Shown in pieces: positions 2,731 to 2,764 of a stretch of DNA of 64,000 nt. A model generated the notes under the pieces. The model saw nothing but the letters and a program-made list of their open reading frames with translations, had not been told where the DNA came from and searched no databases. The DNA is taken from positions 49,587 to 113,586 of the IMG/VR virus record IMGVR_UViG_3300035701_000008; one strand, 5' to 3'. The translations under genes and the position numbers were made by a program. Source of the DNA: a virus. Numbering within the stretch: the first letter of the stretch is position 1; every line of letters begins with the position of its first letter.

Positions 2731-2764
2731 CTTCCCAACAATTAAAAAACAGAAACAGAACTCT

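Follow-up and report, generated by a model that had tools for sequence, protein, structure and literature searches.

Can the 3' end of one viral message act on the translation start of another gene 31 kb away? This question is raised by a 19-mer that occurs, with 0 mismatches, at positions 2737 to 2755 (plus strand; here, site 1) and 34055 to 34073 (minus strand; site 2) of the window, by which we mean the whole 64,000-nt stretch of DNA analyzed here. It makes up the right-hand end of a virus record of 113,586 bp that has direct terminal repeats and a G+C content of 31%. A minus-strand RNA of site 1 is complementary, base for base, to the mRNA leader at site 2, and the 19/19 antisense match claimed in the initial annotation is present as described. 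The carriers of this locus belong to an uncultured group of phages, with genomes of ~110 kb, that probably infect Bacteroidota.

The 19-nt match and its surroundings

Genes of the window lie on the minus strand up to position 34052 and on the plus strand from position 34380. Site 1, the 19-nt core of the finding, is located on the minus strand between the stop codon of a 58-aa DUF5522 gene (2765 to 2941, minus strand; Pfam E = 2.6e-11) and an intrinsic terminator (2705 to 2731, minus strand), just where the initial annotation had placed it. This terminator consists of a hairpin with a GAAA loop (2711 to 2731) followed by a run of six U residues (2705 to 2710). At site 2, the copy spans positions -21 to -3 of the ATG at 34052, ending 2 nt short of the start codon, again as annotated. 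A shorter match that had been noted, 11 nt complementary to the leader of recA (recA, 1458 to 2531, minus strand), is present as well. The recA leader (2532 to 2556, minus strand) contains a tandem AACAATTAAA, and its positions 2542 to 2552 are complementary to the 3' half of the U-rich tract to which site 1 belongs.

The gene behind site 2 (33699 to 34052, minus strand) heads the minus-strand arm and adjoins the divergent intergenic region, which is the sequence basis for calling it the first gene. The labels "first early gene" and "middle gene" used previously are not observations; the sequence gives map positions only. The 117-aa product of the first gene has no Pfam or PHROG family, and the ESM Atlas returned no usable match for it. 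Its structural model (mean pLDDT, 80.6) comprises a beta-rich core, then a helix, and a disordered C-terminal tail. Fold searches yielded weak OB-fold or SSB-like matches (Foldseek E of at least 0.037; VIA-align Z of at most 5.0), the best of them to the OB-fold single-stranded DNA-binding proteins PriB, SSB, and RPA (Z of at most 5.0). These values are a weak hint that the protein may be SSB-like, below the level at which a fold could be claimed.

Across the entire 113,586-bp record, the 19-mer has only two exact copies. The pair forms the longest non-palindromic inverted repeat of the window, with the runner-up at 16 nt. We simulated 200 windows with an order-3 Markov model that kept strand asymmetry, and 13 of these (6.5%; P ~0.065) held an inverted repeat of at least 19 nt. 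Because simulated windows reach this length at such a rate, the match alone proves little; by itself it is weak evidence and not statistically compelling.

A conserved U-rich tract beside the terminator

Site 1 is part of a 26-nt U-rich tract (2736 to 2761, minus strand) that lies directly 5' of the terminator hairpin. In the loci of DUF5522 relatives (55 to 69% identity), the tract consensus, TTTCTGTTCTGTTTTTTAATTGTTG, is nearly unchanged at this place. Among these DUF5522-type relatives, the surroundings of the tract and the hairpin stem vary. Using an exact 17-mer to scan IMG/VR, we identified 53 loci, of which about 30 carry all three parts: tract, hairpin, and U-run. An alignment of 23 distinct elements places the tract in columns 15 to 40, where it is near-invariant and is unpaired in the consensus fold; the sequence 5' of it is unconserved. 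Double-sided compensatory changes are found in 7 of the 15 terminator stem pairs of the aligned relatives. The hairpin and U-run are on the transcribed strand, and with the compensatory changes in the stem they have the features of an intrinsic terminator. The 68-nt 3' UTR RNA (2700 to 2767), hairpin included, has a minimum free energy of -21.8 kcal/mol. A covariance model built from the alignment of the 23 elements detected a single strong tract-terminator copy in every one of 10 near-complete relatives; in two of the ten (G016 and G018), the tract is interrupted. Taken together, this conservation pattern would fit a function at the RNA level. Like the seed of an sRNA that is derived from a 3' UTR or shares its terminator, the tract is conserved, is predicted to be unpaired, and adjoins the shared terminator.

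Further evidence that would fit an RNA-level function comes from loci in which the DUF5522 gene has decayed. Six loci have a different gene further upstream (G012, G015, G017, G014/L146, L064, and L042), and in each of them DUF5522 is a 27-aa remnant ORF or is broken, with the tract retained. A canonical TAnnTTTG promoter box (-7), exact in sequence, is located 44 to 110 nt upstream of the tract in all six, and most have a further TTTG 19 to 22 nt above the box (spacing judged by eye). DUF5522-type loci carry no TAnnTTTG box near the tract. For this genome, none is found within 260 nt upstream of the tract; an intact 58-aa DUF5522 ORF precedes the tract in the window, which is not the layout of a free-standing sRNA gene. 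Since the box is present where the ORF has been lost, transcription of the promoter-tract-terminator unit appears to have been kept. That this unit outlives the ORF is the strongest argument that the tract may work as an RNA.

The remnants themselves lie between the TAnnTTTG promoter and the conserved tract. In G017 (L143:1567-1650) and at the equivalent places of G012 and G015, what is left of DUF5522 is either a 27-aa ORF with GRVHFT..CC still present or a broken remnant. Pfam does not recognize the 27-aa ORF of G017, which pairwise BLASTP links to DUF5522 with E = 2e-5.

We also searched for the tract in sequence collections. No record of the cultured phage collection carries the element, and the matches there are hairpin-like sequences in unrelated phages; the same collection holds no close relative of either region. 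In Chryseobacterium phage MA9V-3, folE is directly upstream of recA, without the tract and without the upstream element. Rfam includes the phage C4 antisense RNA. Neither site 1 nor site 2 has an Rfam family; the best Rfam 15 match in positions 2400 to 3100 has an E value of 1.7, and no family covers the tract. An exact 22-mer of the tract is absent from 185,579 bacterial and archaeal genomes, giving no sign that the tract is a copy of a host sRNA. We also rejected the idea that a small gene starts on the opposite strand behind the leader-like sequence of site 1, as neither an ATG nor a reading frame is conserved at that place. An IHF-type site, for which the consensus was compared by eye, did not fit.

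Leaders that resemble the complement of the tract

The leader at site 2 (34055 to 34073, minus strand) contains an island, AAAAACAGAA, that is nearly invariant in 22 aligned leaders and lies 1 to 8 nt before the ATG. Its flanks differ among these leaders, as do the proteins encoded downstream, and the spacer between the island and a conserved G-run/C-run hairpin varies in both sequence and length. The site 2 leader is predicted to be unpaired.

Preceding the leader in the divergent intergenic region is a conserved element of ~190 bp (34074 to 34250), which we found in front of the leader in 47 IMG/VR contigs by its signature of ACCCACCCACCC, 0 to 2 nt, and CCAAAGGTA. In the window, its features are T-rich runs, a G-run/loop/C-run hairpin, and the invariant ACCCACCCACCC..CCAAAGGTA block, which on the plus strand is a G-run motif. 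These ~190 bp upstream of the 117-aa gene are better conserved than the protein itself. The genes behind the element encode small proteins of ~110 to 146 aa from several unrelated-looking families, and two genomes (G006 and G007) have the element without a homologue of the 117-aa protein. We considered that the leader might follow a structured, riboswitch-like 5' UTR. This idea was dropped because the consensus fold of the element has just two 3-bp helices with no covariation and, folded as a single sequence, the element shows no gain in stability over shuffles (z = 0.29). The element has no Rfam match. Candidate roles for it are a phage-specific promoter, an origin region, and a recombination cassette. 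Beside the divergent region are an HU-like gene (34711 to 35100) and a gene with weak helix-turn-helix matches (34380 to 34769).

The island belongs to a wider class of sequences. The motif complementary to the tract is a generic leader of the Bacteroidota type that is found upstream of many bacterial genes, and the phages carry many similar leaders of their own. In a run of Chitinophagales genes, the leader matches the complement of the tract over ~20 nt. A conserved gene in seven Chitinophagales loci (L253, L283, L284, L296, L298, L300, and L305), whose protein starts with MKNDLLFDF.VDK, has the leader TCAACAATTAAAAAACAGAAAAAATG, which is identical to the complement of the phage tract over ~20 nt and has a TTGACA..TATTATCAAC motif in front.

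Within the phages, several genes are preceded by one recurring leader, GAACAATTTAAAAACAAATAA..ATG, which differs from the tract complement by 3 mismatches in 19. It is found at positions 25835 to 25853 of the window and at genome position 75418 of this genome (here, G000), with similar leaders in G006, G013, G016, and G018. Its recurrence suggests a leader consensus shared across the phage group. The longest direct repeats of the window are a 22-nt repeat, TTCATTTTATTTGTTTTTAAAT, at 25554 to 25575 and 25828 to 25849, and a 19-nt repeat nearby (25666 and 25910). These repeats point to a duplication of gene starts or to a small family of genes.

We ranked the ~240 to 290 translation-initiation regions of each genome by their match to the complement of the tract. 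In G000, the first-gene leader heads the list of ~255 regions; it also ranks first in G006 and G007, and second in G013 and G018. The duplex energy in G000 is approximately -24 to -25 kcal/mol, which ranks second of ~38,000 windows when the tract's own opposite strand is excluded. Against initiation regions, the tract outperforms composition-matched shuffles in G000 (P < 0.004), G006 (P ~0.01), and G013 (P = 0.01 to 0.04). The direction in which the match extends differs among genomes, running 5' through AACAATT in G000, G007, and L137 and 3' through CAGAACAGA in G018 and G022. The tract can be read as two overlapping anti-leaders, with its 5' and central part complementary to leaders of the AAAAACAGAA type and its 3' part to those of the AACAATTAAAA type.

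A candidate antisense RNA and its alternatives

The account that we tentatively favor is a terminator-linked antisense RNA that would pair with A-rich leaders, those of the first gene and recA included. Bacteroidota start translation without Shine-Dalgarno pairing, and the tract is complementary to an A-rich leader without a Shine-Dalgarno sequence, of the kind that they use. In the proposed mechanism, the minus-strand transcript ending at the terminator (2705 to 2731) would carry the unpaired U-rich stretch (2736 to 2761) as an antisense "anti-leader." Its source would be the 3' UTR of the DUF5522 mRNA in this genome and a small RNA with its own promoter in some relatives. The predicted partners are the first gene, through a 19-bp duplex over positions -21 to -3, and recA, through an 11-bp duplex with its leader. 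By covering the stretch on which ribosomes land, pairing would lower translation and perhaps destabilize the mRNA. Accumulation of the RNA, formation of the duplexes in vivo, the sign of their effect, and any order of expression from early to middle are inferred. This account is the most economical one, with the first gene as the strongest predicted partner and recA as the second, and a role for the tract as a small-RNA regulator of translation starts is plausible.

Several known regulators offer comparisons. To our knowledge, the host lineage (Bacteroidota) has no known Hfq or ProQ. The enterobacterial RNAs CpxQ, DapZ, and SroC are 3' UTR-derived or terminator-sharing sRNAs. The tract resembles these in that the seed is directly 5' of the intrinsic terminator of a protein gene and has its own promoter in some relatives; unlike them, it is part of a predicted, virus-encoded RNA, and its complement is a general class of leaders instead of a handful of particular mRNAs. 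Among phage RNAs, c4 of P1 and P7 acts on icd-ant and sar of P22 acts on ant, and both cover ribosome-loading sites. Here, too, the start of a phage gene has its complement in a putative RNA encoded by the phage, and just as c4 lies upstream of ant, the tract lies upstream of its candidate target recA on the same strand. However, c4 and sar are parts of temperate-phage immunity circuits, with sar acting as a cis-antisense RNA, whereas the best match of the tract is 31 kb away, and there is no homology. RegA and RegB of T4 are proteins that shut down a set of phage mRNAs at translation-initiation regions; the concept of a phage product acting at such regions is shared, but the effector proposed here is an RNA. 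The relation between c4 and ant is mentioned in PMC8201110.

The closest precedent is from a bacterium. GibS, an sRNA of Bacteroides thetaiotaomicron, represses translation-initiation regions by base pairing through a conserved single-stranded seed, independently of Hfq and ProQ (PMC7366714). Candidates for UTR-derived sRNAs have been reported from this species as well (PMC7366714). The antisense-RNA reading is supported by the GibS precedent, with which it shares a Shine-Dalgarno-less Bacteroidota setting and an unstructured, conserved seed directed against initiation regions (PMC7366714), the pairing in our case being proposed from the DNA. GibS differs in being a chromosomal intergenic sRNA with a 5' seed of 30 to 50 nt, and its sequence is unrelated to the tract.

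Post-transcriptional control in phages of Bacteroidota is little known. If real, the tract would define a new family of phage-encoded or UTR-derived antisense regulators of initiation regions. If functional as an antisense RNA, it would act on the A-rich landing pad itself as a compact and conserved regulator carried by phages, and would offer a simple system in which to study how base pairing blocks initiation on Shine-Dalgarno-independent ribosomes. If it is not an antisense RNA, there are two conserved elements to explain: a tract-terminator unit upstream of recA, and a ~190-bp element with a leader island before a variable first gene.

The tract and the leader island may instead be independently constrained elements that are complementary by accident and do not pair, the tract being a protein-binding, processing, or termination-efficiency signal and the island simply a good A-rich leader. 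We consider this possible, and nearly as likely as an antisense RNA. In its favor, the two sites do not co-evolve. The initial annotation had proposed a comparison of both sites in relatives for coordinated substitutions, and none were found: the length of the A-run (5, 6, or 7 nt) changes at each site independently of the other, as do the flanks. In 11 genomes, cognate tract-leader pairs were not significantly better than non-cognate pairs (permutation P = 0.09 for the longest match and 0.14 for duplex energy), and the co-variation of seed and target that characterizes a trans-acting antisense sRNA is not seen in this set. The long duplex is confined to G000 (19 nt, perfect) and its close relative G001 (18 nt). 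Contiguous pairing is 8 to 14 nt in nine other paired genomes and ~7 to 8 nt in G016, and shuffled tracts reach a maximum of 10 nt against ~170 leaders per genome, which is close to the 7 to 14 nt seen outside G000 and G001.

Other results weigh against an antisense RNA. In G012 and G017, the tract is kept and the first-gene leader lacks the island, which is carried there by other, non-homologous genes; conversely, G016 and G018 have an interrupted tract and leaders that still keep the island. Accidental complementarity is also consistent with the presence of the leader motif in many Bacteroidota genomes, with its extended ~20-nt form before a Chitinophagales gene, and with the P value of ~0.065 for the 19-mer alone. 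Moreover, the many genomes count as approximately one evolutionary event, because both motifs are invariant and a single ancestral chance match would persist. Against this reading, the complement of the tract is leader-like over its full length, leaders extend the match in different directions, and in several genomes initiation regions match the tract better than they match shuffled versions of it. Accidental complementarity also provides no positive account of why 26 nt should be invariant. The earlier interpretation is supported in part: the tract at the terminator is conserved and predicted to be unpaired, and the island by the start codon is conserved, but the two sites do not co-evolve.

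A broader version of the antisense RNA, which we regard as improbable, would have a seed complementary to the consensus A-rich leader of Bacteroidota and their phages, and would mask or titrate many initiation regions. Besides the leaders of the phage first gene and recA, it would target further phage leaders and possibly mRNAs of the host, making it a global translation switch during infection rather than a one-target regulator. The original proposal, that the RNA shuts off the first gene, is in any case too narrow: the tract is syntenic with recA, and its complement is a generic leader type.

The synteny with recA raises another possibility, that the tract acts in cis. Transcripts reading through the terminator would pair the tract with the recA leader and hide the start codon, so that recA would be translated only from its own promoter and the match to the first gene would be secondary. 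We think this unlikely, much as for the broader antisense RNA. In its favor, the tract and terminator are just upstream of recA in 9 of the 10 genomes, whatever gene sits further upstream. The exception is G018, in which the nearest RecA-like match is 40% identical and ~0.8 kb from the element, with another reading frame directly upstream. Downstream of the tract, the recA leader (AACAATTAAA(A)) is conserved in most genomes, and 8 to 14 nt of it are complementary to the invariant 3' half of the tract. However, this synteny may merely be conserved gene order, and a strong terminator separates the tract from the recA leader. The recA ATG lies anywhere from 91 to 355 nt beyond the tract, with unconserved sequence in between, and in the three genomes in which the 3' half of the tract varies (G019, G012, and G015), the recA leader has no compensating change.

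Between the terminator and the recA promoter region are direct repeats. Two near-identical copies of TTGGTGAA(T/A)AACACTT, at 2652 to 2667 and 2682 to 2697, are 30 nt apart, and a third, partial copy at ~2632 to 2641 extends the array to 2632 to 2697. Similar repeats (TTTTTCACCAA on the transcribed strand) are found at the equivalent place in G006, G001, and other genomes. These repeats look like operator sites for the recA promoter.

Lower in our ranking, and rather improbable, is the idea that a DNA-binding protein of the phage or the host recognizes the shared sequence as double-stranded DNA, in one orientation near the first gene and in the other upstream of the recA promoter. The occurrence of the same sequence at both places, with only two exact copies per genome, is consistent with such a site, as are the HU-like and helix-turn-helix genes that adjoin the divergent region and the operator-like repeats. 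But the spacing is fixed relative to RNA landmarks (1 to 8 nt from the ATG at one site and directly 5' of the terminator stem at the other), while distances to the putative promoters vary widely. The tract is also always on the transcribed strand, and relatives keep the promoter-tract-terminator unit without an intact ORF, both of which count against a DNA site. Least probable of all is a low-complexity coincidence in which neither site functions in relation to the other or to regulation, since, despite the A/T-rich, low-complexity sequence and the 6.5% of simulated windows that reach 19 nt, the tract and the leader island are each conserved amid variable flanks in dozens of contigs and a single tract per genome lies beside a covarying terminator hairpin.

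At the Rfam gathering threshold, only two RNAs are recognized in the window: a tmRNA at 26679 to 27003 (minus strand; 83.8 bits) and one tRNA at 44516 to 44589 (plus strand).
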